This document shows positions 475 through 17,243 of a DNA stretch of 19,177 nt, in pieces. Below the pieces are notes generated by a model. It was given only the letters and a program-made list of their open reading frames with translations, searched no databases and had not been told where the DNA came from. The stretch is from the IMG/VR virus record IMGVR_UViG_638341196_000003; one strand, given 5' to 3'. The stretch comes from a virus (Duplodnaviria > Heunggongvirae > Uroviricota > Caudoviricetes). Each line of letters begins with the position of its first letter. The first letter of the stretch is position 1. A program made the translations under genes and the position numbers.

Positions 475-1002
475 ATGCAGCATTTAAAAAATATTACGGC
501 GGGTAATCCAAAAACGGTTGAACAATATCAATTGACAAAGGACTTTGATGTTGTCTGGTTTTTTTCAGAAGATGGTAAGAACTGGTACGAAGAACAAAAG
601 TATTTTGCTGATGACACGATAAAAATAGCGTACGACAAAGATAATATCATCCACTATGTGGAAAAGGATGTGACAGCTATCAGACCGGATGGATTAAGTG
701 TTGTTGAAGTGGCGGATATTACTGCTAACCGACGGGCGGACATTTCAGGGAACTGGATGTTTAAGGACGGCAAAGTGATTAAACGCGTTTATACGGCAGA
801 GGAATTACAGCAGCAGGCAGAAATTCGGAAAGCCAGACTTCTTGCAGATGCTGAATCCGTGATTTTGCCGCTGGAGCGCGCGGTCAGACTGAACATGGCA
901 ACAGATGAGGAGCGTAGCCGACTGGAATCATGGGAACGCTACAGCGTTCTGGTCAGTCGTGTGGATCCTGCAAATCCTGAATGGCCGGAAATGCCGCAAT
1001 AA
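475..1002 (+). CDS. Tail fiber assembly protein (P2 gpG-like chaperone)
   Basis: 175-aa ORF directly after the fiber gene, same length as P2 gpG; C-terminal ...[12 protein letters not shown] resembles Tfa-type chaperones. Identity is from recall, not a search. Confidence 0.7.
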
Positions 1003-2898: not shown

Positions 2899-3582
2899 AT
2901 GACTGAATGGCTTAATGCACATTTTGGTGCAGACGCAGCTACCTATCTTAGCTTATTAGTCGGCGTACTGGCACTGTTTGGTATTGGGGGCGGTGTTACA
3001 TATAGAATCAGACAGCAAAACAACATAAAACAGAAGGCAAAGAAAACCGAGGGTGATGTGAACCAGGCCGGGCGGGATATTAATCAGACCACCAACGTTT
3101 ACCACACATCCAATGAATCTACTGAGGACCCTGTAAAAAAAAAGCAAGATGAACATGATCTGAAGATAATCGACCAGATCCTTGAATTGCTGCCTTATGA
3201 GGATACTACTCAATGGGTTGAGCAGAGCTACCTGAGCGGTATACGGCAAGATGTTTGCTTAAACATTGAAAAAGCTGAAAAATTTAGCGGTGAAAAGTAT
3301 CGGTTATTCAATACTGAAGTGAATGGTGCGAAAGACGCTTTTTTGGACGCTATGACCGCATACGTAGATAGTACGCTACCATTTATGAGTGTTGATTACC
3401 CGAACAGAAAGCCAGTGATGCTAAGCCTTCCCCATGACTGGAAGAGTAAGAGTGTTGAATCGGAGGCAAACTTCCGCTTTCATCAGCAAAATGTGCGTGA
3501 AACATCGGGGGGGATGATTGCGCGCTATGAGGATTTTGTCAGGACATTTAAGGCTCATGGATTCATAAGCGATAAACTGTAA
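2899..3582 (+). CDS. Hypothetical membrane-anchored protein (227 aa): one N-terminal transmembrane helix, charged linker, soluble C-terminal domain; non-phage cargo
   Basis: Intact ORF with ATG start; hydrophobic segment YLSLLVGVLALFGIGGGV at residues ~16-33, then a Lys/Glu-rich linker. Own promoter-like region upstream and an intrinsic terminator downstream (rebuilt across the IS10-like insertion). No family recognised. Confidence 0.5.
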   Translation: MTEWLNAHFGADAATYLSLLVGVLALFGIGGGVTYRIRQQNNIKQKAKKTEGDVNQAGRDINQTTNVYHTSNESTEDPVKKKQDEHDLKIIDQILELLPYEDTTQWVEQSYLSGIRQDVCLNIEKAEKFSGEKYRLFNTEVNGAKDAFLDAMTAYVDSTLPFMSVDYPNRKPVMLSLPHDWKSKSVESEANFRFHQQNVRETSGGMIARYEDFVRTFKAHGFISDKL

Positions 3583-3675: not shown

Positions 3676-4976
3676 CTGAGGGATCCCCACAAAATTACTG
3701 CTAATAAACCAGCACCATATTTCGGTAGGTTCTGGACAGATGGTTTAGAACTGTGCTCAGTACTGTTCGTCTTAAAATAAGTGGCGAGTGTCGAAGAACA
3801 TTCTTCGCTAACGTCAGATATGAGATAACCCGCCGGGATTTAATGCTGTTAGCCTGATATTTCAGGTGTAACCCTTTATTTTCAGCGTGATAACCGAGTA
3901 ACCACATTACGATAGTGCTCAACGTTGCCAGCAGACTCAGAACCAGAATTCTTCCTGTTGAACGACTTTTGCTGGCCCGAAGACCAAATCCGAAGCGCCC
4001 GTTCTTTTCATCACGAAAGTTTTGCTCTATCTGCATTCGCCGACTGTATAACTTGATGATTTCTCGCGCTCTGAAGTCATTTGTACTGCTGAAGATCAAC
4101 CAGGCTTCTTTTGCTGATTTGCTCTGTTCTTTGTCTGTTTTGTTTAAACCACTCTGACCTTTCGAACGTTTCTTTTTTCGCCCTTTTGCCGATTTCTTAT
4201 AGGTGTAAAAATGCCCCCGGATGCTTTTTTTCCTTTCTTTAACCAGCCTTCCAGCCTCCATATATTCCGGTGTTTTACATTCAGGGCTATCCGACACTTT
4301 TAACCATCTTTCAGGCGCGTTATCGAGGCAATACTGAACGTTATTTCTGATCCGACCAATAAAATCCCAGCCCAGAGAAGTAATATGGTGAAACCATGCG
4401 CTCTGAAATCCAGCATCCGTGACAATAATAACCCTGGCATCGGGGGGCAGGGATTGAGCAAGGGAATCAAGGAAATCATGTTGTATCAATGGATTATTTT
4501 GTTTTTCAGAAGGAACAACCTTACTCAATAACGGAATGGAACGCCCGTCACACAGAAGGCTGGCACGAAGAACATGATGCTCCTGGGAGGGATAGCCACT
4601 CCAGTCTACGGCTATTACACATAAAGATAACTGCCGTGTCAGCATTGAAGTGATATTCCTGAAAATCATTGGAATATCGCGATGGAGCGCCTCATTACCC
4701 ATGAGGCGATCAATACGTTTGCTCTTATTCTTAACTTGTGCATTACCCGGGAAAAAACGTCCGATACTGGTCAGCGTCAGAGATGCTCCGTTGATTAACG
4801 CCACTGTGGCATCCATCAGGGCATTTTGTCGGTACTGATGAAATGGTGCTAAGGCATCCCGGAAGAAATTCTGACATACTTTATGAACAGGCATAGCAGT
4901 GATCTCATTGAATTGTTGGCACAAATCAGTAGATCACATAATGCTATGTCTGTCTCGTTTTCTGGGAATTCCTCAG
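3676..4976 (-). mobile_element. IS4-family, IS10-like insertion sequence (1301 bp)
   Basis: Imperfect terminal inverted repeats CTGAGGGATCCCCACAAAATT (left) and CTGAGGAATTCCCAGAAAACG (right, reverse complement), 17 of 23 matching, resembling the IS10 end CTGATGAATCCCC. Perfect 9-bp duplication CCCTCCGGG at 3667-3675 and 4977-4985. Confidence 0.7.
3701..4924 (-). CDS. IS4-family (IS10 group-like) DDE transposase, 407 aa
   Basis: Shares landmarks with IS10 transposase as recalled (KRIDRLxGN, VDWS, RAS...GRS, DAGF, IYSxRMQIEQxFRD); stop 25 bp from the left inverted repeat. Confidence 0.85.
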   Translation of the reverse strand: MCQQFNEITAMPVHKVCQNFFRDALAPFHQYRQNALMDATVALINGASLTLTSIGRFFPGNAQVKNKSKRIDRLMGNEALHRDIPMIFRNITSMLTRQLSLCVIAVDWSGYPSQEHHVLRASLLCDGRSIPLLSKVVPSEKQNNPLIQHDFLDSLAQSLPPDARVIIVTDAGFQSAWFHHITSLGWDFIGRIRNNVQYCLDNAPERWLKVSDSPECKTPEYMEAGRLVKERKKSIRGHFYTYKKSAKGRKKKRSKGQSGLNKTDKEQSKSAKEAWLIFSSTNDFRAREIIKLYSRRMQIEQNFRDEKNGRFGFGLRASKSRSTGRILVLSLLATLSTIVMWLLGYHAENKGLHLKYQANSIKSRRVISYLTLAKNVLRHSPLILRRTVLSTVLNHLSRTYRNMVLVY

Positions 4977-5061
4977 CCCTCCGGGGCGGCTTTTTTATGA
5001 CTATAATCGACAGAATCACCTGAACGTCCAGGTGGGTTTCCCTGACAGGACGTCAAGGAAT

Positions 5062-5097
5062 GTTCGCTTTGTGCCAGGAGCGGACGTTGCCAGCATT
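5062..5097. repeat. Copy 2 of the repeat family, direct relative to copy 1, about 150 bp upstream of the 261-aa ORF
   Basis: Hand alignment to 1052-1087, about 30 of 38 identical, including an uninterrupted TGTGCCAGGAGC. Confidence 0.5.
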
Positions 5098-5246
5098 GAG
5101 TTTTCAGTTTTCAAAGGTATATCTTTAGATTTAGTTCACTTAGAATGAGCGTGTTAAAGTTTTCGGTTATGTGAGTATATTGAACATAACAAATAAACAA
5201 TAATTTTTGTATTCCATTTAGGATATAAAAAAGAGGGATTTGAGTT

Positions 5247-6032
5247 ATGTACGATTATAGTTTTTTACTTACTCCATCTACAGGATTTGTTAAAGGATTA
5301 TGTGGAGTTTGGTCGAATGATTTCTCTATAAATGATGATTCTGACTCTGATTTAGGGCAAACAGATATTCATTTACTTTCATCTCCTCATTTGAATATCA
5401 TATCCGACCCAAATGAATTGGCTTCCAAGTTAAAAGGTTTGTTGATGCTCATGAACGGCGCACTTAGCGTTCTTTATGGTTTTGAAAGATATCAATCTTT
5501 TGGTCCTCTTTCTATTTCTGGAAGTGAAGGCATTAATTACTCGGAAATATGCGGCTTTAAATCAATGGATGTAACTCAGGTAAACCCCTTTAATTTCCAT
5601 GACATACAGCAACCACACCCTCGCGCTGATAATTTTTCACGATTAATTAATTTATCATCTAAACATGAATCCTTACGTGTTGTTTTAGGTATGTGTGCCT
5701 TAGGTTATGATTGGGTTAATCTTTATCGTTTGTGGGAAACAATTAGAGAATATGTATATGATAAATATGTGAAAGGTATACTAAATTTCCCCGACGCTTA
5801 TAAAGGCAAGAAATATCAGAGAGATAAAGTAATTAGCATGGCTTTTAATATTGATGAAAAGGAAATCAGCAGATTCACGGGCACTGCTAATAGCTTTGAA
5901 CTGTTAGGGTATCTTGCGAGACATGGAAAGGGAAGTTCCGGAGGGATATTAAAAAATCCGATGTCAAGAGTTGACGCAAGCATTTTCGTACACAAAGCAA
6001 CTTACAAATATTGTAAGTTATTTTTGATGTAA
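5247..6032 (+). CDS. Hypothetical protein (261 aa), AT-rich non-phage cargo gene
   Basis: Intact ORF with ATG and an upstream AGAGGGA ribosome-binding site; the gene and its upstream region are visibly AT-rich compared with the flanking tail genes. No transmembrane segment or recognisable motif. Confidence 0.5.
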   Translation: MYDYSFLLTPSTGFVKGLCGVWSNDFSINDDSDSDLGQTDIHLLSSPHLNIISDPNELASKLKGLLMLMNGALSVLYGFERYQSFGPLSISGSEGINYSEICGFKSMDVTQVNPFNFHDIQQPHPRADNFSRLINLSSKHESLRVVLGMCALGYDWVNLYRLWETIREYVYDKYVKGILNFPDAYKGKKYQRDKVISMAFNIDEKEISRFTGTANSFELLGYLARHGKGSSGGILKNPMSRVDASIFVHKATYKYCKLFLM

Positions 6033-6124: not shown

Positions 6125-6161
6125 TCAAGGTCCGAGAAAAATGGCGAAGCTCATCTTTTTC
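6125..6161 (-). terminator. Intrinsic terminator serving the minus-strand HNH-like gene (hairpin GGCGAAGC/GCTTCGCC followed on the minus strand by AUUUUUCUC)
   Basis: Perfect 8-bp inverted repeat at 6133-6140 and 6154-6161, about 33 nt past the stop at 6194-6196; lies between two convergent cargo genes. Confidence 0.45.
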
Positions 6162-6193
6162 AGGCTTCGCCAACTTGAGTTATTGGTTAAAAT

Positions 6194-6372
6194 TCATTTA
6201 GGAATAATAGAATGCAATTCGTGACTCACCTGGATTTCATAGTGTTTCAATAGTTCTCCGATGTTAATTCCTACTACCTTACGAACTGCGCCGAGGGAGA
6301 AGTTAAGCTCCTCAATGCCCGGCCGATCTGGCGTTGAATTCATATAGTGTCGGCACGCACGGACAATTGACT
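6194..6372 (-). pseudogene. 3' segment (last 58 codons plus stop) of the HNH-like cargo gene interrupted by the IS911-like element
   Basis: Minus-strand frame at 6370 continues in phase the frame ending at 8845 once the IS and one copy of the ACT duplication are removed. The N-terminal residues of listed ORF 6194-6451 lie inside the IS end and are an artefact. Confidence 0.6.
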
Positions 6373-6380
6373 TGAAGTGG

Positions 6381-8509
<2,129 letters not shown>

Positions 8510-8510
8510 G

Positions 8511-8772
8511 TAGCCTTTTTTAATATTTCATTCTCCATTTCAATGCGTTGTAGCTTTTTCCTCAGCTTACGTATTTCGATTTGTTCTGGTGTTATCGGAG
8601 AGGCTTTTGGTGTTTTGCCCTGACGCTCATCACGCAGTTGTTTGACCCATCTTGTCATTGTGGAAAGGCCAACATCCATAGCTTTGGCGGCATCTGCCAC
8701 CGTGTATTTCTGGTCAACAACCAGTTGAGCGGATTCGCGTTTAAACTCTGCGCTAAAATTTCTTTTTTTCAT
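8511..8772 (-). pseudogene. IS911-like orfA, 5' portion (codons 1-88) cut by IS30; the last 12 codons and stop resume at 7288-7247
   Basis: [56 protein letters not shown]...EILKKAT, then IS30; downstream of IS30 the frame reads [12 protein letters not shown]-stop. Confidence 0.8.
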
Positions 8773-8844
8773 TGGAGCACCTGTGTTGTTCTGAGGCGAG
8801 CATATCACCTCTGTTCAGGTGGCCAAATTCAGTGTGCCACTTCA

Positions 8845-9421
8845 ACTCGACGATCAACGATAGCGGAGACTCAGGTGCAATCTCGGAGCGAATCGCCGTA
8901 AGAGAGAGTCGGAGCTCCTTCAAAGAATCCGAGACTCGTGCTGGATCCTCTTGAGCATATGGCAGATAAAGAGAACTCTTGTCTTCCAATAAATGGATCA
9001 ACCGCAGAGCAATTTTCTCGTCTGGGCGATGCGATAGAAATTGAAACATTAGCCTCTTTCCTCCCTCCAAGCACTCCTTCATTAGTGATTCGTGGTTACG
9101 TTTCCATTTTCGCAAATACTCGGCGGGGTAGCCCATACCGCCATTCTTATCAACTAAATCAGCACAAGCTCCGCACAACCATATAGCATTTTTTATGCTC
9201 TTCCGCTCTGTTTCTGACTGAGACATGTCATAGCGCGGTCCGCCAGGGCTCGCCGCGCAGATATGCGCCGCCTCACCCGTCTTGATAGAAAGATTTTCCG
9301 CCAATTGATCCGGGCCGATTGTTACCCTATGACAAGAGGGATTGCTACAAATATATGTAGCGCGCTCTGCTACCTTACCTACAACGCTTGGAGGAAAGTT
9401 GTGCCTATTTGTCTTGGTCAT
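8845..9421 (-). pseudogene. 5' segment (codons 1-192) of the HNH-like cargo gene interrupted by the IS911-like element
   Basis: ATG at 9421; product carries CSNPSCH...GEAAHICAASPGG...NAIWLCGACADLVD, an HNH-type Cys/His/Asn signature with non-canonical substitutions. The tail of listed ORF 8753-9421 beyond 8845 is read-through into the IS. Confidence 0.6.
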
Positions 9422-9492: not shown

Positions 9493-10645
9493 AATAGCTG
9501 CGCTTAATACCGCTACACTTTTGCCAGTCCATGTTTGCCTCCGGGGAATGGGCTGACGGTTTCCATAAAATGGCGAACTTTTTTCAACAGTTGCCACATT
9601 GAGCGGCACTGATGATTACGCGTTATTGTGTCGTGAAGTGCCTGCCATAGCCGTTCAACATGATTCACCCATGGCGAGTAAACCGGCTGATAAATGACCC
9701 TGAACTTCGGGTTCTCCTTCAGCCAGCTCTGTGTTTCCCGGCTTTTGTGGATAATGTAGTTGTCCACGATCAGCGTGATGGTTTTCGCCCGACGGTATGT
9801 CGCTTTAAGCCGCTTCAGCAGGCTGATGAACAGCGCCGAACTTTTGCTGTTGCCGCCCACATAGCTGACTTTACCTGTCCCGCTGTGCAGCGCTCCGGCC
9901 AGATAATATTTTTCATTCTGTCCCGGCGTGACCACCCGTTTTTGCTGTCCGCGCAGTTGCCAGTCCGCACCGATTTTGGGATGAAGATGGATATCCACTT
10001 CATCTTCATAAAAGACCGGATGCTCTGCGCTGCATTCGTCCAGTGCTTTATGGATTGCTGCCATCTTTTCATCTTTATGCGGGTCACGGATACGCAGAGT
10101 TGGCGCAGCCCTTCGCCACACAATCCCCGCAGACGGCAACCAGCGGCGAACGGTTCCGGCATTTAACTGGCAACCGGTTATCTCATTGATTTTTATTGCC
10201 AGCAGTTCTGTACTCCAGCGTGAACGCTGGTAGACAAAGTCGCCGGGAGAATGTTTTACCAGCTCACGTAACAGTGTGCAGATATGCTCAAACGGCCAGC
10301 GACGGGCACGCCCGGCAGGTAATGATTTCAGTCCCTCAACACCCGACTGCGTGAACCAGTTAATCCAGCGTCCAACAGAGGAACGGGCGCAGCAGAGCGT
10401 TCTGGCAACGTCGCTGACACGGTCGCCCCGGTGCAGCATCAGCATGGCAGTCAGTCTGCGGGCATAATTTTTATCGTGTGTTTTATGGATGGCTTTCTGC
10501 ATCAGGCGTCGTTCGTCACGGGAAATTGGTGCTATGATCGGCATTGCTCAGTCCGGTTGGTGATTTGTTTTGATTTGGCGATTGATCAGATCGCACAATC
10601 CGGGCTAAGTTCCCTCAAAATGATCTACTATTCCGCGCAGCTATT
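9493..10645 (-). mobile_element. IS630 insertion sequence, complete (1153 bp)
   Basis: 343-aa transposase; imperfect terminal inverted repeats (AATAGCTGCGC...); flanking TA duplication at 9491-9492 and 10646-10647; reconstructed target GATCCTAGGTCTG contains CTAG. Confidence 0.9.
9513..10544 (-). CDS. IS630 (Tc1/mariner superfamily) transposase
   Basis: 343-aa product MPIIAPISRDERRLMQKAIHKTHDKNYARRL... matches IS630 transposase from recall. Confidence 0.9.
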   Translation of the reverse strand: MPIIAPISRDERRLMQKAIHKTHDKNYARRLTAMLMLHRGDRVSDVARTLCCARSSVGRWINWFTQSGVEGLKSLPAGRARRWPFEHICTLLRELVKHSPGDFVYQRSRWSTELLAIKINEITGCQLNAGTVRRWLPSAGIVWRRAAPTLRIRDPHKDEKMAAIHKALDECSAEHPVFYEDEVDIHLHPKIGADWQLRGQQKRVVTPGQNEKYYLAGALHSGTGKVSYVGGNSKSSALFISLLKRLKATYRRAKTITLIVDNYIIHKSRETQSWLKENPKFRVIYQPVYSPWVNHVERLWQALHDTITRNHQCRSMWQLLKKVRHFMETVSPFPGGKHGLAKV

Positions 10646-10941: not shown

Positions 10942-12132
10942 ATGAGTGACTATCATCACGGCGTGCAGGTGCTGGAGATTAACGACGGCACCCGCGTCAT
11001 TTCCACCGTATCCACGGCCATTGTCGGCATGGTCTGCACGGCCAGCGATGCAGATGCGGAAACCTTCCCCCTCAATAAACCGGTGCTGATTACCAATGTG
11101 CAGAGCGCAATTGCAAAGGCCGGTAAAAAAGGCACGCTGGCGGCGTCGTTACAGGCCATCGCTGACCAGTCAAAACCGGTCACCGTTGTTGTGCGCGTGG
11201 AAGACGGCACCGGCGACGACGAAGAAACGAAGCTCGCGCAGACCGTTTCCAATATCATCGGCACCACCGACGAAAACGGTCAGTACACCGGACTGAAAGC
11301 CCTGCTGGCGGCGGAGTCGGTAACCGGTGTTAAACCGCGCATTCTCGGTGTGCCGGGACTGGATACCAAAGAGGTGGCTGTTGCACTGGCATCAGTCTGT
11401 CAGAAGCTGCGCGCTTTCGGGTATATCAGCGCATGGGGCTGTAAAACCATTTCCGAGGTGAAAGCCTACCGCCAGAATTTCAGCCAGCGTGAGCTGATGG
11501 TCATCTGGCCGGATTTCCTCGCATGGGATACGGTCACCAGTACCACCTCCACCGCGTATGCCACCGCCCGTGCGCTGGGGCTGCGCGCTAAAATCGACCA
11601 GGAGCAGGGCTGGCATAAAACGCTGTCCAACGTCGGGGTGAACGGTGTTACCGGCATCAGCGCGTCCGTATTCTGGGATTTGCAGGAGTCCGGCACCGAT
11701 GCTGACCTGCTTAACGAGTCAGGCGTCACAACGCTGATTCGCCGTGACGGTTTCCGCTTCTGGGGTAACCGTACCTGCTCTGATGACCCGCTGTTCCTCT
11801 TTGAAAACTACACCCGCACCGCGCAGGTGCTGGCCGACACGATGGCTGAGGCGCACATGTGGGCGGTGGACAAGCCCATCACCGCAACGCTGATTCGCGA
11901 CATCGTTGACGGCATCAATGCCAAATTCCGTGAGCTGAAAACAAACGGCTATATCGTGGATGCGACCTGCTGGTTCAGCGAAGAATCCAACGATGCGGAA
12001 ACCCTCAAGGCCGGAAAACTGTATATCGACTACGACTATACACCGGTGCCTCCTCTCGAAAACCTGACCCTGCGCCAGCGTATTACCGATAAATACCAGG
12101 CAAATCTGGTCACCTCGGTTAACAGCAATTAA
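10942..12132 (+). CDS. FI: Contractile tail sheath protein (P2 gpFI-like)
   Basis: 396-aa ORF, same length as P2 FI; position and order match the P2 FI-FII-E-T-U-D cluster. Confidence 0.9.
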   Translation: MSDYHHGVQVLEINDGTRVISTVSTAIVGMVCTASDADAETFPLNKPVLITNVQSAIAKAGKKGTLAASLQAIADQSKPVTVVVRVEDGTGDDEETKLAQTVSNIIGTTDENGQYTGLKALLAAESVTGVKPRILGVPGLDTKEVAVALASVCQKLRAFGYISAWGCKTISEVKAYRQNFSQRELMVIWPDFLAWDTVTSTTSTAYATARALGLRAKIDQEQGWHKTLSNVGVNGVTGISASVFWDLQESGTDADLLNESGVTTLIRRDGFRFWGNRTCSDDPLFLFENYTRTAQVLADTMAEAHMWAVDKPITATLIRDIVDGINAKFRELKTNGYIVDATCWFSEESNDAETLKAGKLYIDYDYTPVPPLENLTLRQRITDKYQANLVTSVNSN

Positions 12133-12144
12133 GGAGCCTGACCG

Positions 12145-12662
12145 ATGGCAATGCCGCGCAAACTCAAGTTAATGAACGTCTTTCTGAACGGCTACAGCTA
12201 TCAGGGCGTTGCAAAGTCCGTCACGCTGCCAAAACTGACCCGTAAACTCGAAAACTATCGCGGTGCGGGGATGAACGGAAGCGCACCGGTAGACCTCGGC
12301 CTTGATGACGATGCGCTGTCAATGGAGTGGTCGCTCGGGGCTTCCCGGATTCGGTTATCTGGGAGCTCTACGCCGCAACCGGCGTGGATGCCGTACCGAT
12401 TCGTTTTGCTGGCTCTTACCAGCGCGACGATACCGGCGAAACGGTGGCCGTCGAGGTGGTCATGCGTGGCCGTCAGAAAGAAATCGACACCGGCGAGGGG
12501 AAACAGGGAGAAGACACCGAGTCGAAAATCTCCGTGGTCTGCACCTATTTCCGGCTGACGATGGACGGTAAGGAGCTGGTCGAAATCGACACCATCAACA
12601 TGATTGAGAAGGTGAACGGTGTCGACCGGCTGGAGCAACACCGCCGCAATATCGGCCTGTGA
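12145..12662 (+). pseudogene. FII: Tail tube protein (P2 gpFII-like), frame disrupted near 12337-12340
   Basis: N-terminal 62 codons in frame 1 (…LSMEWSLG), remainder in the overlapping frame (GFPDSVIWELYAAT…) of listed ORFs 12145-12558 and 12327-12662. The break sits in a G4 run where one more G would restore a ~172-aa protein. Confidence 0.6.
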
Positions 12663-13146: not shown

Positions 13147-15586
13147 CAATGTAAAATTACAGGTATTGCTCAGGGCTGTTGACCAGGCATCCCGCCCGTT
13201 TAAATCCATCCGCACAGCGAGCAAGTCGCTGTCGGGGGATATCCGGGAAACACAAAAATCACTGCGCGAGCTGAACGGTCACGCATCCCGTATTGAGGGA
13301 TTTCGCAAGACCAGTGCACAGCTCGCCGTGACTGGTCATGCACTTGAAAAGGCACGGCAGGAGGCCGAAGCCCTTGCCACACAGTTTAAAAACACCGAAC
13401 GTCCCACCCGTGCTCAGGCGAAAGTGCTGGAATCCGCAAAGCGTGCGGCGGAGGACTTACAGGCGAAATATAACCGCCTGACGGATTCCGTTAAACGCCA
13501 GCAGCGGGAACTGGCCGCTGTGGGAATTAATACCCGCAATCTTGCACATGATGAGCAGGGACTGAAAAACCGTATCAGTGAAACCACCGCACAACTTAAC
13601 CGTCAGCGCGACGCGCTGGCGCGTGTCAGTGCGCAACAGGCAAAACTTAACGCAGTAAAACAGCGTTATCAGGCCGGAAAGGAACTGGCCGGAAATATGG
13701 CCTCAGTAGGCGCTGCCGGTGTGGGGATTGCGGCGGCGGGAACGATGGCCGGAGTTAAGTTGCTGATGCCCGGTTATGAGTTTGCGCAGAAAAACTCAGA
13801 ATTGCAGGCCGTGCTAGGAGTGGCAAAAGACTCCGCCGAAATGGCCGCGCTACGCAAGCAGGCGCGCCAGCTCGGTGACAATACCGCCGCCTCAGCGGAT
13901 GATGCGGCCGGTGCGCAGATTATCATTGCGAAAGCGGGTGGAGATGTTGATGCCATTCAGGCGGCAACGCCGGTCACGCTGAATATGGCGCTGGCGAACC
14001 GCCGCACGATGGAAGAAAACGCCGCCCTGCTGATGGGGATGAAATCCGCCTTTCAGCTTTCAAACGATAAGGTTGCTCATATCGGGGATGTTCTCTCCAT
14101 GACGATGAACAAAACCGCCGCCGATTTTGACGGCATGAGCGATGCGCTGACCTATGCCGCACCTGTGGCAAAAAATGCCGGTGTCAGCATTGAAGAAACC
14201 GCCGCAATGGTCGGGGCACTGCATGATGCAAAAATTACCGGTTCAATGGCGGGGACGGGAAGCCGTGCCGTGTTAAGCCGCCTGCAGGCACCGACGGGAA
14301 AAGCATGGGATGCACTGAAAGAGCTTGGTGTGAAAACCTCAGACAGCAAGGGAAACACCCGGCCAGTATTTACCATTCTGAAAGAAATGCAGGCCAGTTT
14401 TGATAAAAACCGGCTCGGTACTGCCCAGCAGGCTGAATACATGAAAACCATTTTCGGGGAGGAGGCCAGCTCAGCCGCTGCTGTGCTGATGACTGCCGCC
14501 TCAACCGGAAGGCTGGACAAACTGACCGCTGCGTTTAAAGCCTCAGACGGGAAGACCGCGGAGCTGGTAAATATCATGCAGGACAACCTCGGCGGTGACT
14601 TTAAGGAGTTTCAGTCCGCTTATGAGGCGGTAGGGACTGACCTGTTTGACCAGCAGGAAGGCGCGCTGCGTAAGCTCACGCAGACGGCCACAAAGTATGT
14701 GTTAAAACTCGACGGCTGGATACAGAAAAACAAATCACTGGCGTCAACTATCGGCCTCATTGCCGGTGGCGCACTGGTGCTGACTGGCATCATCGGTGCC
14801 ATTGGTCTTGTAGCCTGGCCGGTTATCACCGGCATCAATGCCATTATCGCGGCAGCAGGCGCAATGGGGGCAATCTTCACGACGGTTGGCAGTGCTGTTA
14901 TGACGGCCATCGGGGCGATTAGCTGGCCGGTTGTGGCCGTGGTGGCCGCCATTGTCGCCGGGGCGTTGCTTATCCGTAAATACTGGGAGCCTGTCAGCGT
15001 ATTCTTCGGCGGTGTGGTTGAAGGGCTGAAAGCGGCATTTGCGCCGGTGGGGGAACTGTTCACGCCACTTAAGCCGGTGTTTGACTGGCTGGGTGAAAAG
15101 TTACAGGCCGCGTGGCAGTGGTTTAAAAACCTGATTGCACCGGTCAAAGCCACCCAGGACACCCTGAACCGTTGCCGTGACACGGGCGTCATGTTCGGGC
15201 AGGCACTGGCTGACGCGCTGATGCTGCCGCTTAATGCGTTCAACAAACTGCGCAGCGGTATTGACTGGGTACTGGAAAAACTCGGCGTCATCAACAAAGA
15301 GTCAGACACACTTGACCAGACCGCCGCCAGAACTCATGCCGCCACGTATGGCACCGGTGGTTATATTCCGGCGACCAGCTCTTATGCAGGCTATCAGGCT
15401 TATCAGCCGGTCACGGCACCGGCTGGCCGCTCTTATGTGGACCAGAGTAAAAACGAATATCACATCAGCCTGACCGGTGGTACTGCGCCGGGGACACAGC
15501 TTGACCGCCAGTTACAGGATGCGCTCGAAAAATACGAGCGGGATAAACGAGCGCGCGCCCGTGCCAGCATGATGCATGACGGTTAA
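13139..15586 (+). CDS. T: Tail tape measure protein (P2 gpT-like)
   Basis: 815-aa ORF, Ala/Gly-rich with predicted coiled-coil and hydrophobic segments; same length and position as P2 T. Confidence 0.9.
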   Translation: MSNNVKLQVLLRAVDQASRPFKSIRTASKSLSGDIRETQKSLRELNGHASRIEGFRKTSAQLAVTGHALEKARQEAEALATQFKNTERPTRAQAKVLESAKRAAEDLQAKYNRLTDSVKRQQRELAAVGINTRNLAHDEQGLKNRISETTAQLNRQRDALARVSAQQAKLNAVKQRYQAGKELAGNMASVGAAGVGIAAAGTMAGVKLLMPGYEFAQKNSELQAVLGVAKDSAEMAALRKQARQLGDNTAASADDAAGAQIIIAKAGGDVDAIQAATPVTLNMALANRRTMEENAALLMGMKSAFQLSNDKVAHIGDVLSMTMNKTAADFDGMSDALTYAAPVAKNAGVSIEETAAMVGALHDAKITGSMAGTGSRAVLSRLQAPTGKAWDALKELGVKTSDSKGNTRPVFTILKEMQASFDKNRLGTAQQAEYMKTIFGEEASSAAAVLMTAASTGRLDKLTAAFKASDGKTAELVNIMQDNLGGDFKEFQSAYEAVGTDLFDQQEGALRKLTQTATKYVLKLDGWIQKNKSLASTIGLIAGGALVLTGIIGAIGLVAWPVITGINAIIAAAGAMGAIFTTVGSAVMTAIGAISWPVVAVVAAIVAGALLIRKYWEPVSVFFGGVVEGLKAAFAPVGELFTPLKPVFDWLGEKLQAAWQWFKNLIAPVKATQDTLNRCRDTGVMFGQALADALMLPLNAFNKLRSGIDWVLEKLGVINKESDTLDQTAARTHAATYGTGGYIPATSSYAGYQAYQPVTAPAGRSYVDQSKNEYHISLTGGTAPGTQLDRQLQDALEKYERDKRARARASMMHDG

Positions 15587-15600
15587 GGAGGTGACGAAAA

Positions 15601-16080
15601 ATGATGCTCGCGTTAGGTATGTTTGTTTTTATGCGCCAGACGCTGCCACATCAGACCATGCAGCGTGAATCAGATTATCGCTGGCCGTCAAATTCCCGTA
15701 TCGGTAAACGGGATGCCTATCAGTTTCTCGGTGTAGGTGAGGAGAACATCACACTTGCCGGTGTGCTTTATCCCGAACTGACTGGCGGAAAGCTGACGAT
15801 GACCACGCTCAGACTGATGGCAGAGGAAGGCCGGGCGTGGCCGTTGCTGGATGGCACCGGCATGATTTACGACATGTATGTCATCAGCAAGGTGAGTGAA
15901 ACAGGGAGTATTTTCTTTGCAGACGGCACACCCCGGAAAATTGATTTTACGCTGTCGCTCACCCGCGTTGATGAGTCACTGGCCGCGCTTTATGGCGATA
16001 TCGGTAAACAGGCGGAATCGCTCATCGGTAAGGCTGGCAGTATGGCGACTAAATTCACGGGTATGACGGGGGCGGGATAA
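15601..16080 (+). CDS. U: Tail protein (P2 gpU-like)
   Basis: 159-aa ORF after T; stop overlaps the next start (TAATG) as in P2 U-D. Confidence 0.8.
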   Translation: MMLALGMFVFMRQTLPHQTMQRESDYRWPSNSRIGKRDAYQFLGVGEENITLAGVLYPELTGGKLTMTTLRLMAEEGRAWPLLDGTGMIYDMYVISKVSETGSIFFADGTPRKIDFTLSLTRVDESLAALYGDIGKQAESLIGKAGSMATKFTGMTGAG

Positions 16081-17243
16081 TGCTGGATGCGCTGACATTT
16101 GATGCAGGCAGTACGCTGACGCCGGATTACATGCTGATGCTCGACAGCAGGGATATTACCGGCAATATCAGCGACCGTCTGATGAGCATGACCCTGACGG
16201 ATAACCGGGGCTTTGAGGCTGACCAGCTTGATATTGAACTGAACGATGCCGACGGGCAGGTCGGGCTGCCGGTTCGTGGCGCTGTCCTGACGGTGTATAT
16301 CGGCTGGAAAGGTTTTGCCCTGGTATGCAAAGGGAAATTTACCGTTGATGAGGTTGAACACCGGGGCGCACCGGATGTGGTCACCATCCGCGCCCGGAGT
16401 GCAGATTTTCGCGGGACGCTCAATTCCCGCCGGGAAGGCTCATGGCATGACACCACGCTCGGTGCGATTGTTGAGGCGATAGCCTCCCGGAACAGGCTGG
16501 AAGCCAGTGTCGCTCCGTCACTGGCCGGAATTAAAATTCCGCACATCGACCAGTCGCAGGAGTCTGATGCGAAATTCCTGACCCGCCTTGCTGAACGCAA
16601 CGGCGGTGAGGTGTCGGTAAAAATGGGAAAACTGCTGTTTCTCAAAGCGGGGCAGGGGGTGACGGCCAGCGGTAAAAAAATCCCGCAGATTACCATCACC
16701 CGCAGCGACGGCGACCGTCATCATTTTGCGATTGCTGACCGTGGAGCCTACACCGGCGTAATGGCAAAGTGGTTACACACCAAAGACCCGAAGCCACAAA
16801 AGCAGAAGATAAAACTGAAACGCAAAAAGAAAGAGAAACACCTGCGCGCACCGGAGCACCCGAAAGCGAAACCGGTCAGGCAGAAGAAAGCGCCTAAAGT
16901 ACCGGAAGCGCGCGAAGGTGAATACATGGCCGGTGAGGCTGATAACGTTTTTGCCCTGACTACGGTATATGCCACAAAAGCGCAGGCCATGCGCGCCGCT
17001 CAGGCGAAGTGGGATAAGCTGCAACGGGGCGTGGCGGAGTTCTCCATCAGTCTGGCTACTGGTCGGGCAGATATTTACACGGAAACGCCGGTCAAAGTGT
17101 CAGGTTTTAAGCGCGTCATAGACGAGCAGGACTGGACAATCACTAAGGTGACACACTTTCTGAATAATAGCGGCTTCACGACGTCCTTAGAGCTTGAGGT
17201 CAGGCTTTCTGATGTGGAGTACGAAACAGAAGGTGATGAGTAA
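16080..17243 (+). CDS. D: Tail protein D (P2 gpD-like)
   Basis: 387-aa ORF with a Lys-rich internal segment (KPQKQKIKLKRKKKEK), same length and position as P2 D. Confidence 0.85.
   Translation: MLDALTFDAGSTLTPDYMLMLDSRDITGNISDRLMSMTLTDNRGFEADQLDIELNDADGQVGLPVRGAVLTVYIGWKGFALVCKGKFTVDEVEHRGAPDVVTIRARSADFRGTLNSRREGSWHDTTLGAIVEAIASRNRLEASVAPSLAGIKIPHIDQSQESDAKFLTRLAERNGGEVSVKMGKLLFLKAGQGVTASGKKIPQITITRSDGDRHHFAIADRGAYTGVMAKWLHTKDPKPQKQKIKLKRKKKEKHLRAPEHPKAKPVRQKKAPKVPEAREGEYMAGEADNVFALTTVYATKAQAMRAAQAKWDKLQRGVAEFSISLATGRADIYTETPVKVSGFKRVIDEQDWTITKVTHFLNNSGFTTSLELEVRLSDVEYETEGDE

Follow-up and report, generated by a model that had tools for sequence, protein, structure and literature searches.

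An open reading frame at positions 5247–6032 (plus strand) of a viral stretch of 19,177 nucleotides (IMG/VR record IMGVR_UViG_638341196_000003, Caudoviricetes; the whole stretch is called the window below) is very probably DS-29, a one-gene anti-phage defence system carried as cargo in a variable slot of a defective P2-like prophage beside trhP/yegQ. The frame is intact, begins with ATG and encodes 261 residues. The product has the same length as WP_061089765.1 and is identical to it at 260 of 261 residues, the sole difference being Ile at position 246 here and Asn in the clone that was tested experimentally. WP_061089765.1 is the protein called 'HEP3', or DS-29, in the DefensePredictor paper of DeWeirdt, Mahoney & Laub (Science 2026; PMC13092281). 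A literature search on DS-29 found it named only in that paper and its preprint.

The sequence of WP_061089765.1 is given in Table S8 under the working name 'HEP3', with its result marked as replicated. In Table S6, HEP3 belongs to the randomly chosen set, is a transcription unit of one gene, is scored 'defensive TRUE' and bears the name DS-29 (PMC13092281). The HHblits log-odds in Table S6 is −3.8, so remote homology to known defence genes did not reveal HEP3 (PMC13092281). As a single cloned gene with its native promoter region, HEP3 reduced phage plating in E. coli MG1655; the −log10 EOP values in Table S7 for this N246 allele are 6.3 (Bas60), 5.0 (T4), 3.7 (Candy) and 1.26 (RB69) (PMC13092281). 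The allele of strain F41, WP_001375234.1, appears in Table S10 as a predicted defence gene with a log-odds of 10.9 (PMC13092281). From these data it follows that the gene is already known, published in 2026, and experimentally supported as a single-gene defence system. The copy described here shares the one-gene organisation of the published one and lies in a P2 remnant ridden with insertion sequences.

The DS-29 family in Enterobacterales

The sequence-only reading, made before any database search, had described the gene as an orphan. That label has to be given up, as the family comprises at least 73 clusters at 50% identity and has a published name. A search of 5.8 billion proteins returned 32 relatives of similar length with 45–90% identity, and all named members among them belong to Enterobacterales. 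The count of at least 73 clusters, with members nearly all 230–280 residues long, comes from an exhaustive search of 1.84 billion cluster representatives with a cut-off of E ≤ 0.001. Homologues were found in Escherichia, Klebsiella, Citrobacter, Serratia, Dickeya, Pantoea and Proteus. The DS-29 protein cluster also includes a member from Shigella dysenteriae, which together with the load of insertion sequences around the gene suggests a Shigella-like source.

Conservation as a coding sequence, on which the earlier reading had made its proposal depend, is evident from intact orthologues spanning 90% down to ~25% identity and from dN/dS values of 0.28 against the Klebsiella copy, 0.22 against Citrobacter and 0.14 against the P0019 copy. 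These sequence comparisons indicate that the family is under purifying selection.

Known domains gave no purchase on the protein. PADLOC and Foldseek, both of which had been suggested as checks in the sequence-only reading, returned no match for the product: it was without a hit in Pfam-A, NCBIfam, PADLOC-DB 2.0 and PHROGs, and Foldseek searches of a predicted structure against the PDB and BFVD gave nothing significant. Sequence searches of the PDB, including two run with profiles, found no match either, nor did tblastn against 50,697 phage genomes. Searching 64 family members with Pfam yielded just scattered matches, all at E > 0.01; no Pfam model matches any of ~110 homologues, and a second large protein search, using a profile of the 64 sequences, recovered no relative with any Pfam domain.

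Base composition and expression signals

The AT-richness noted in the sequence-only reading is real. The GC content is 0.349 (34.9%) across the frame, with a GC3 of 0.28, and falls to 0.267 in the 150 bp upstream, compared with 0.502 for the entire window and 0.53–0.575 for the sheath, tube, tape-measure, gpU and gpD genes. These tail genes had been taken as flanking the frame, which is right for the slot as a whole, framed by phage genes at 475–1002 and from 10942 onward, and wrong for the direct neighbours, which are insertion sequences and other cargo. The Shine-Dalgarno sequence AGAGGGA is present as described, at 5232–5238 with a spacing of 8 nt to the ATG. The 19-residue Kyte-Doolittle mean of the product peaks at 1.29, so no transmembrane segment is expected, in agreement with the earlier reading.

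Upstream of the start codon lies an AT-rich module of ~180 bp (5066–5246, plus strand), presumed to be the native promoter region, which carries the AGAGGGA and is delimited by a constant homology boundary. In the Klebsiella, Citrobacter and Pantoea copies alike, homology ends on the left at 5065–5075 of the window (3893–3903 of L010, the locus of strain cM2a, which is free of insertion sequences). This constant boundary shows that the transfer unit is the DS-29 gene together with ~180 bp of AT-rich upstream DNA, and it bears out the suggestion that the gene has its own expression signals. A promoter scan gave no strong sigma-70 consensus in the conserved module, so the promoter of DS-29 is a putative one. 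An insertion sequence lies 271 bp upstream of the start codon; in the cM2a locus, the distance to the upstream gene is 354 bp. Just left of the module, ~110 bp at 4977–5085 match one plasmid and another 18 E. coli genomes with 99% identity, at sites that have no annotation and no DS-29; this segment could represent a conserved flanking sequence of the cargo slot or a scar left there by recombination.

Downstream, the 161 bp between DS-29 and the convergent frame hold a GC-rich 10-bp hairpin (6142–6172) with a fold energy of −16 to −17 kcal/mol, which a terminator consensus scan overlooked because its loop is 11 nt. The two genes had been said to have a common terminator region. A single hairpin does lie between them, but its U-tract serves the minus strand only, where the sequence after the stem reads AUUUUUCU. 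This makes the hairpin a canonical intrinsic terminator of the convergent gene and at best a weak one for DS-29.

A variable slot in a P2-like prophage remnant

In a megablast search against 5,426 complete E. coli genomes, the window corresponds to a P2-like prophage remnant located between yegR and ogrK/trhP. The slot that holds DS-29 is anchored on the left by a P2-type tail-fibre assembly gene (475–1002, plus strand; Pfam Caudo_TAP, E = 1.5e-33, and the RefSeq annotation of the cM2a locus) and on the right by the P2-type tail sheath gene FI (10942–12132, plus strand; Pfam Phage_sheath_1, Phage_sheath_1C and Gp18_domIII_N). Pfam matches identify tube, tape-measure, gpU and gpD genes after the sheath gene, followed by trhP/yegQ. 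The content of the stretch between tail-fibre assembly and sheath genes differs among strains, and some strains have a HEPN-domain gene or GapS4b somewhere within the same prophage stretch. In strain cM2a, the slot contains only a 227-aa gene and the 261-aa gene, both on the plus strand, and a convergent gene for a 250-aa 'DUF6650 family protein' on the minus strand. This strain-to-strain variability, together with the movement of the DS-29 module among E. coli, Klebsiella, Citrobacter and Pantoea, upholds the proposal that the gene is horizontally acquired cargo.

We take the slot, between genes G and FI, to be the Z/fun locus of the P2 map. Vassallo et al. described a second defence-enriched P2 locus in 2022, holding fun and three newly found systems (PMC9519451). 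DS-29 resembles that cargo in being a defence gene of small size and high AT content that can be exchanged within a P2-like prophage. The content here is different (DS-29, the HNH-DUF6650 gene and the 227-aa gene), and the same block also occurs in a CP4-like integrative island of strain F41.

The 227-aa gene (2899–3582, plus strand) has no match in Pfam, NCBIfam, PADLOC or PHROGs. It accompanies DS-29 in E. coli only, sharing a 3.4-kb block with it in cM2a and F41. The representative of its cluster, WP_000141344.1, is a predicted defence gene in Table S10, where the row for a 232-aa member of the cluster gives a log-odds of ~6.6 (PMC13092281). We considered this gene as a partner of DS-29 and rejected it, as it is absent beside DS-29 in Klebsiella, Citrobacter and Pantoea. 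In the F41 island, the HNH-DUF6650 gene is followed by a 366-aa HEC-08/DUF3644 protein (positions 14228–15328 of that locus, L001), itself listed as a predicted defence gene (PMC13092281); the F41 block is thus part of a small cluster of defence genes, beside an integrase disrupted by an insertion sequence. The HEC-08/DUF3644 protein has the same length as DS-38 ('HEP2'), a validated DefensePredictor system, and is likened to it by length only.

Decay of the remnant around an intact gene

The boundaries of the insertion sequences were set by aligning the window to the cM2a locus. IS2 lies at 1493–2823, within the cargo slot. An IS4-family element of 1,301 bp with IS10-like ends (3676–4976, minus strand) is recognised by Pfam DDE_Tnp_1, inverted repeats and the 9-bp duplication CCCTCCGGG; this is the element 271 bp from the DS-29 start codon, and it lies outside the conserved 5′ module. 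An IS911-type element of the IS3 family with a nested IS30-type element, 2,472 bp together (6373–8844, minus strand), has terminal inverted repeats and a 3-bp duplication, ACT, and splits the HNH-DUF6650 gene. Pfam assigns rve/HTH_21 to 6381–7220 and HTH_38/rve to 7296–8447 within this composite, and the names IS911 and IS30 are presumptive, given on the basis of the ends and sizes of the elements. Finally, an IS630-type element of 1,153 bp (9493–10645, minus strand; Pfam DDE_3 and HTH, TA duplication) lies upstream of the HNH-DUF6650 start. In all, there are five insertion sequences within ~9 kb, from four insertions given that IS30 is nested, with clean inverted repeats and target duplications. 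None of the 5,426 complete E. coli genomes in our collection matches this configuration.

The tube gene FII (12145–12558) has a 1-bp deletion in a G run at ~12336 and is left with 137 codons compared with 172. Taken with the insertions, this deletion shows that the prophage is defective, and the remnant is incapable of making tails; head and replication modules are also absent from it within the window. A separate difference is seen at the gpU/gpD junction, where 297 bp (16032–16328) are present in the window and deleted in cM2a, where gpU and gpD both have a 'partial' annotation. The remnants in the window and in cM2a have decayed independently.

Such a setting could suit a silent passenger, with DS-29 persisting as an intact frame in a decaying remnant while no longer being expressed or useful. 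Four insertions within ~9 kb, a split cargo gene next door, a frameshifted tube gene, missing head and replication modules and an insertion sequence 271 bp from the start codon are all as this explanation would have it. We nevertheless consider it improbable, as neither the frame nor any part of the 180-bp conserved 5′ module has been disturbed, the protein is one residue away from the tested allele and the family is under purifying selection. In addition, a 2026 study in NAR found the defence genes of defective P2 and P4 elements to be nearly identical to their counterparts in intact elements, and probably functional.

The convergent HNH-DUF6650 gene and the autonomy of DS-29

The sequence-only reading had noted a convergent HNH-like gene. 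The neighbour is indeed convergent, but it is broken: only its last 59 codons adjoin DS-29, and the HNH-bearing 192 codons lie beyond the 2.47-kb insertion. We located the breakpoint using blastn against the cM2a locus. The 3′ fragment (6194–6372, minus strand) is identical at 58 of 59 positions to residues 192–250 of the intact 250-aa F41 protein, and the short convergent frame at 6194–6451 contains no more of the gene than this. The 5′ fragment, comprising the first 192 codons with the HNH/His-Me-finger part (8845–9421, minus strand), is identical to the intact protein at 188 of 192 positions.

The intact 250-aa protein (5022–5774 of the cM2a locus) has the RefSeq name 'DUF6650 family protein'. 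In PADLOC, its residues 9–119 match PDC-M68A (E = 3.8e-24), and residues 4–120 match the HNH endonuclease module in effector models that include SAVED-HNH. Its precomputed Pfam annotation lists PF20355, unlike our hmmscan against the current Pfam-A, which gave no match at E ≤ 0.1; the mismatch may be due to differing model versions. The E. coli protein WP_059356353.1, likened to the neighbour by its two-domain layout only, has HHpred matches in Table S5 to ICEA/His-Me finger at residues 5–93 and to DUF6650 at 132–246 (99.5%) (PMC13092281).

A 2025 preprint shows that in type VI Thoeris the role of ThsG effector falls to DUF6650 proteins, which are activated by 2′cADPR from an adjacent TIR protein (10.64898/2025.12.03.692087). 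The neighbour is annotated as carrying the DUF6650 domain that defines ThsG, and the locus is a defence slot. A TIR search over all slot frames found no match, DS-29 has no TIR signature, the DS-29 and DUF6650 genes are separable, and the neighbour bears an N-terminal HNH nuclease, whereas the ThsG proteins described have either transmembrane helices or no extra domain at all. In one Klebsiella context, a TIR gene lies two genes upstream of DS-29 and three from DUF6650; other contexts of the same cassette lack one.

Whether the two genes are independent or linked cargo had been left open in the sequence-only reading, which proposed co-occurrence as a check. Linkage is tight in E. coli, where DS-29 and HNH-DUF6650 occur in exactly the same 15 of 5,426 complete genomes. 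In Klebsiella, a 2.05-kb two-gene cassette, ~94% identical to that of E. coli, is found in two or three contexts: on plasmids, next to the leading-region genes, and at two sites in the chromosome, within SRAP/umuDC islands, of which one adjoins smpB and has a TIR gene. The linkage is broken elsewhere. A Pantoea agglomerans megaplasmid carries the DS-29 module only, from 182 bp before the start codon to 45 bp beyond the stop codon, and in Citrobacter DS-29 is accompanied by just the last 30 codons of the DUF6650 gene. Nine loci sampled from relatives with ≤66% identity show no DUF6650 neighbour, and have instead DUF2971, a conjugative element, a prophage, BREX with an integrase, rne, IS21 with a toxin-antitoxin pair or a capsid gene nearby. 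DUF2971, whose gene precedes the homologue in K. aerogenes, was rejected as a partner because it was seen in that lineage only. Across all contexts, DS-29 is found with integrases, BREX, insertion sequences, conjugative elements and plasmids and has no constant partner. The absence or reduction to a stub of DUF6650 in Pantoea, Citrobacter and the distant relatives indicates that DS-29 is an autonomous unit, and its convergent neighbour, conserved 5′ module and solitary occurrence in Pantoea mark it as a stand-alone transcription unit.

The shared distribution in E. coli and the ~94% identical cassette in Klebsiella would also fit a single two-gene system, in which DS-29 senses infection or makes a small-molecule signal for HNH-DUF6650, in effect a Thoeris-like pathway lacking a TIR protein. 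The DUF6650 domain acts as an effector in response to a signal and normally depends on a partner (10.64898/2025.12.03.692087), and the slot holds no TIR gene. We think this unlikely, as DS-29 protects alone (PMC13092281), is separable from DUF6650 in the Pantoea, Citrobacter and ≤66% identity loci, and is convergent with it, each gene having its own upstream region. In the window, the DUF6650 gene is destroyed and DS-29 is intact. Another DUF6650 protein, the SMEK-DUF6650 protein DS-27, also defends solo (PMC13092281). The separability of the genes and the solo activity of both DS-29 and DS-27 make DS-29 unlikely as a supplier of signal. A role as a TIR-like signal producer was rejected as the main reading, since the protein has no TIR signature or fold match and no acidic residue conserved across the wider family, and it works and travels alone. 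Its published solo activity, the selection on the family and the survival of DS-29 beside a destroyed neighbour together favour two independent, often co-travelling units, the first of the options that had been left open.

The Klebsiella plasmid copy raised one further candidate function. There, the cassette lies beside ArdA, anti-restriction, SSB and ParB leading-region genes, and DS-29 could on that account be an anti-defence gene, a plasmid-establishment gene or an addiction-module toxin. An IS110-type element separates the cassette from the leading-region genes, which are on the opposite strand, no antitoxin-like partner is conserved across contexts, and published plating data show protection (PMC13092281). 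We regard such a function as extremely unlikely, and on the strand, the intervening element and the plating data we rejected DS-29 as an anti-defence or leading-region gene.

Predicted structure and possible mechanism

An AF2 model of DS-29 built from a 22-sequence alignment (pLDDT 85, pTM 0.85) has two parts, an N-terminal α/β region (~residues 1–125) of four short strands and a long helix, and a C-terminal half (~129–260) that is helical and possibly HEPN-like. Among 64 diverse family members, the adjacent residues R225 and H226 are invariant (64 of 64), and S46, G71, Y160, F210 and N215 are near-invariant. The family signature, at residues 210–227, is FTGTANxFxxLGxxARHG, extending to FTGTANxFxxLGxxARHG-x6-P-x3-M-x-L-x-EA, and a second conserved motif, SxHLN, is found near residue 46 (S46-x-H48-L-N50). 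Model confidence is lowest at 225–232, which is the conserved site itself.

On this basis, DS-29 may be cytoplasmic and have a divergent HEPN-like nuclease as its C-terminal helical domain, with a putative active site around the invariant N215…R225-H226, perhaps together with the N-terminal S46-x-H48-L-N50. Infection would switch the protein on, RNA would be cut and phage growth would stop, perhaps at the infected cell's expense; sensing of infection or control of the nuclease would fall to the N-terminal α/β region.

The hallmarks of the HEPN superfamily are a four-helix up-down bundle, the motif Rx4–6H and metal-independent RNase activity, usually in a dimer. No His is found 4–6 residues past R225 in any of the 64 members, so DS-29 does not carry the defining Rx4–6H motif. 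In this it differs from HEPN defence nucleases such as Cas13, Csm6, HEPN/MNT toxins, the C-terminal domain of AbiA and RnlA/LsoA. It differs from them also in its weak scores, in the lack of a Foldseek match and in having an extra conserved N-terminal α/β domain without a recognised relative. When the DS-29 family profile was aligned using hhalign with the DS-28 HEPN nuclease and the F41 HEC-08/DUF3644 protein, nothing significant was found. An infection-activated, divergent HEPN-like nuclease is still the most likely single mechanism for DS-29, but given the absence of Rx4–6H and the low model confidence at 225–232, we hold it only tentatively, at rather less than an even chance.

Some other catalytic or binding chemistry has about the same likelihood. 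DS-29 would still defend, but not as a HEPN RNase: the Arg-His pair and D25…S46-x-H48-L-N50 would form another kind of active or binding site, and the HEPN resemblance would reflect merely a common helical bundle. The protein could then be, for example, an enzyme directed at nucleotides or NAD, a DNA nuclease, or a sensor that interferes with some process of the host. The missing Rx4–6H in all 64 members, the Foldseek result against the PDB and BFVD and the lack of a Pfam match among ~110 homologues are consistent with such a chemistry, as is the conserved polar motif that the N-terminal half carries in its own right. The mechanistic pointer given in the DefensePredictor paper, an HHpred match to HEPN-like_int, has a probability of just 57–59% (PMC13092281). 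We judge this alternative to be only a little short of evenly balanced.

The two main questions about DS-29 could also be answered jointly, with DS-29 as the non-HEPN founder of a new family of Arg-His enzymes or sensors that, in its common cassette, cooperates with HNH-DUF6650 and has basal defence activity when alone. We see this as very unlikely. If true, DS-29 might for example produce or relay a small-molecule signal read by the ThsG-type DUF6650 domain, and the pair would be a TIR-independent relative of Thoeris signalling.

Implications

The practical use of the identification is in annotation: entries named 'hypothetical protein' across seven enterobacterial genera can now be called DS-29, a phage-defence gene with experimental support. 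In this P2 remnant, the interval between tail-fibre and sheath genes may be regarded as a defence hotspot that has outlived its prophage. The analysis adds to the published record in two respects. The residues S46, G71, Y160, F210, N215, R225 and H226, invariant or nearly so, make a short list for mutagenesis, and they make plain that a non-canonical motif underlies the 'HEPN' label. DS-29 is also often found in a 2-kb cassette with HNH-DUF6650, which contains the effector domain that responds to 2′cADPR in Thoeris, with no TIR gene in the slot described here. The occurrence of HNH-DUF6650 without a TIR partner, here and in most contexts of the cassette, raises the question of what activates orphan DUF6650 effectors.
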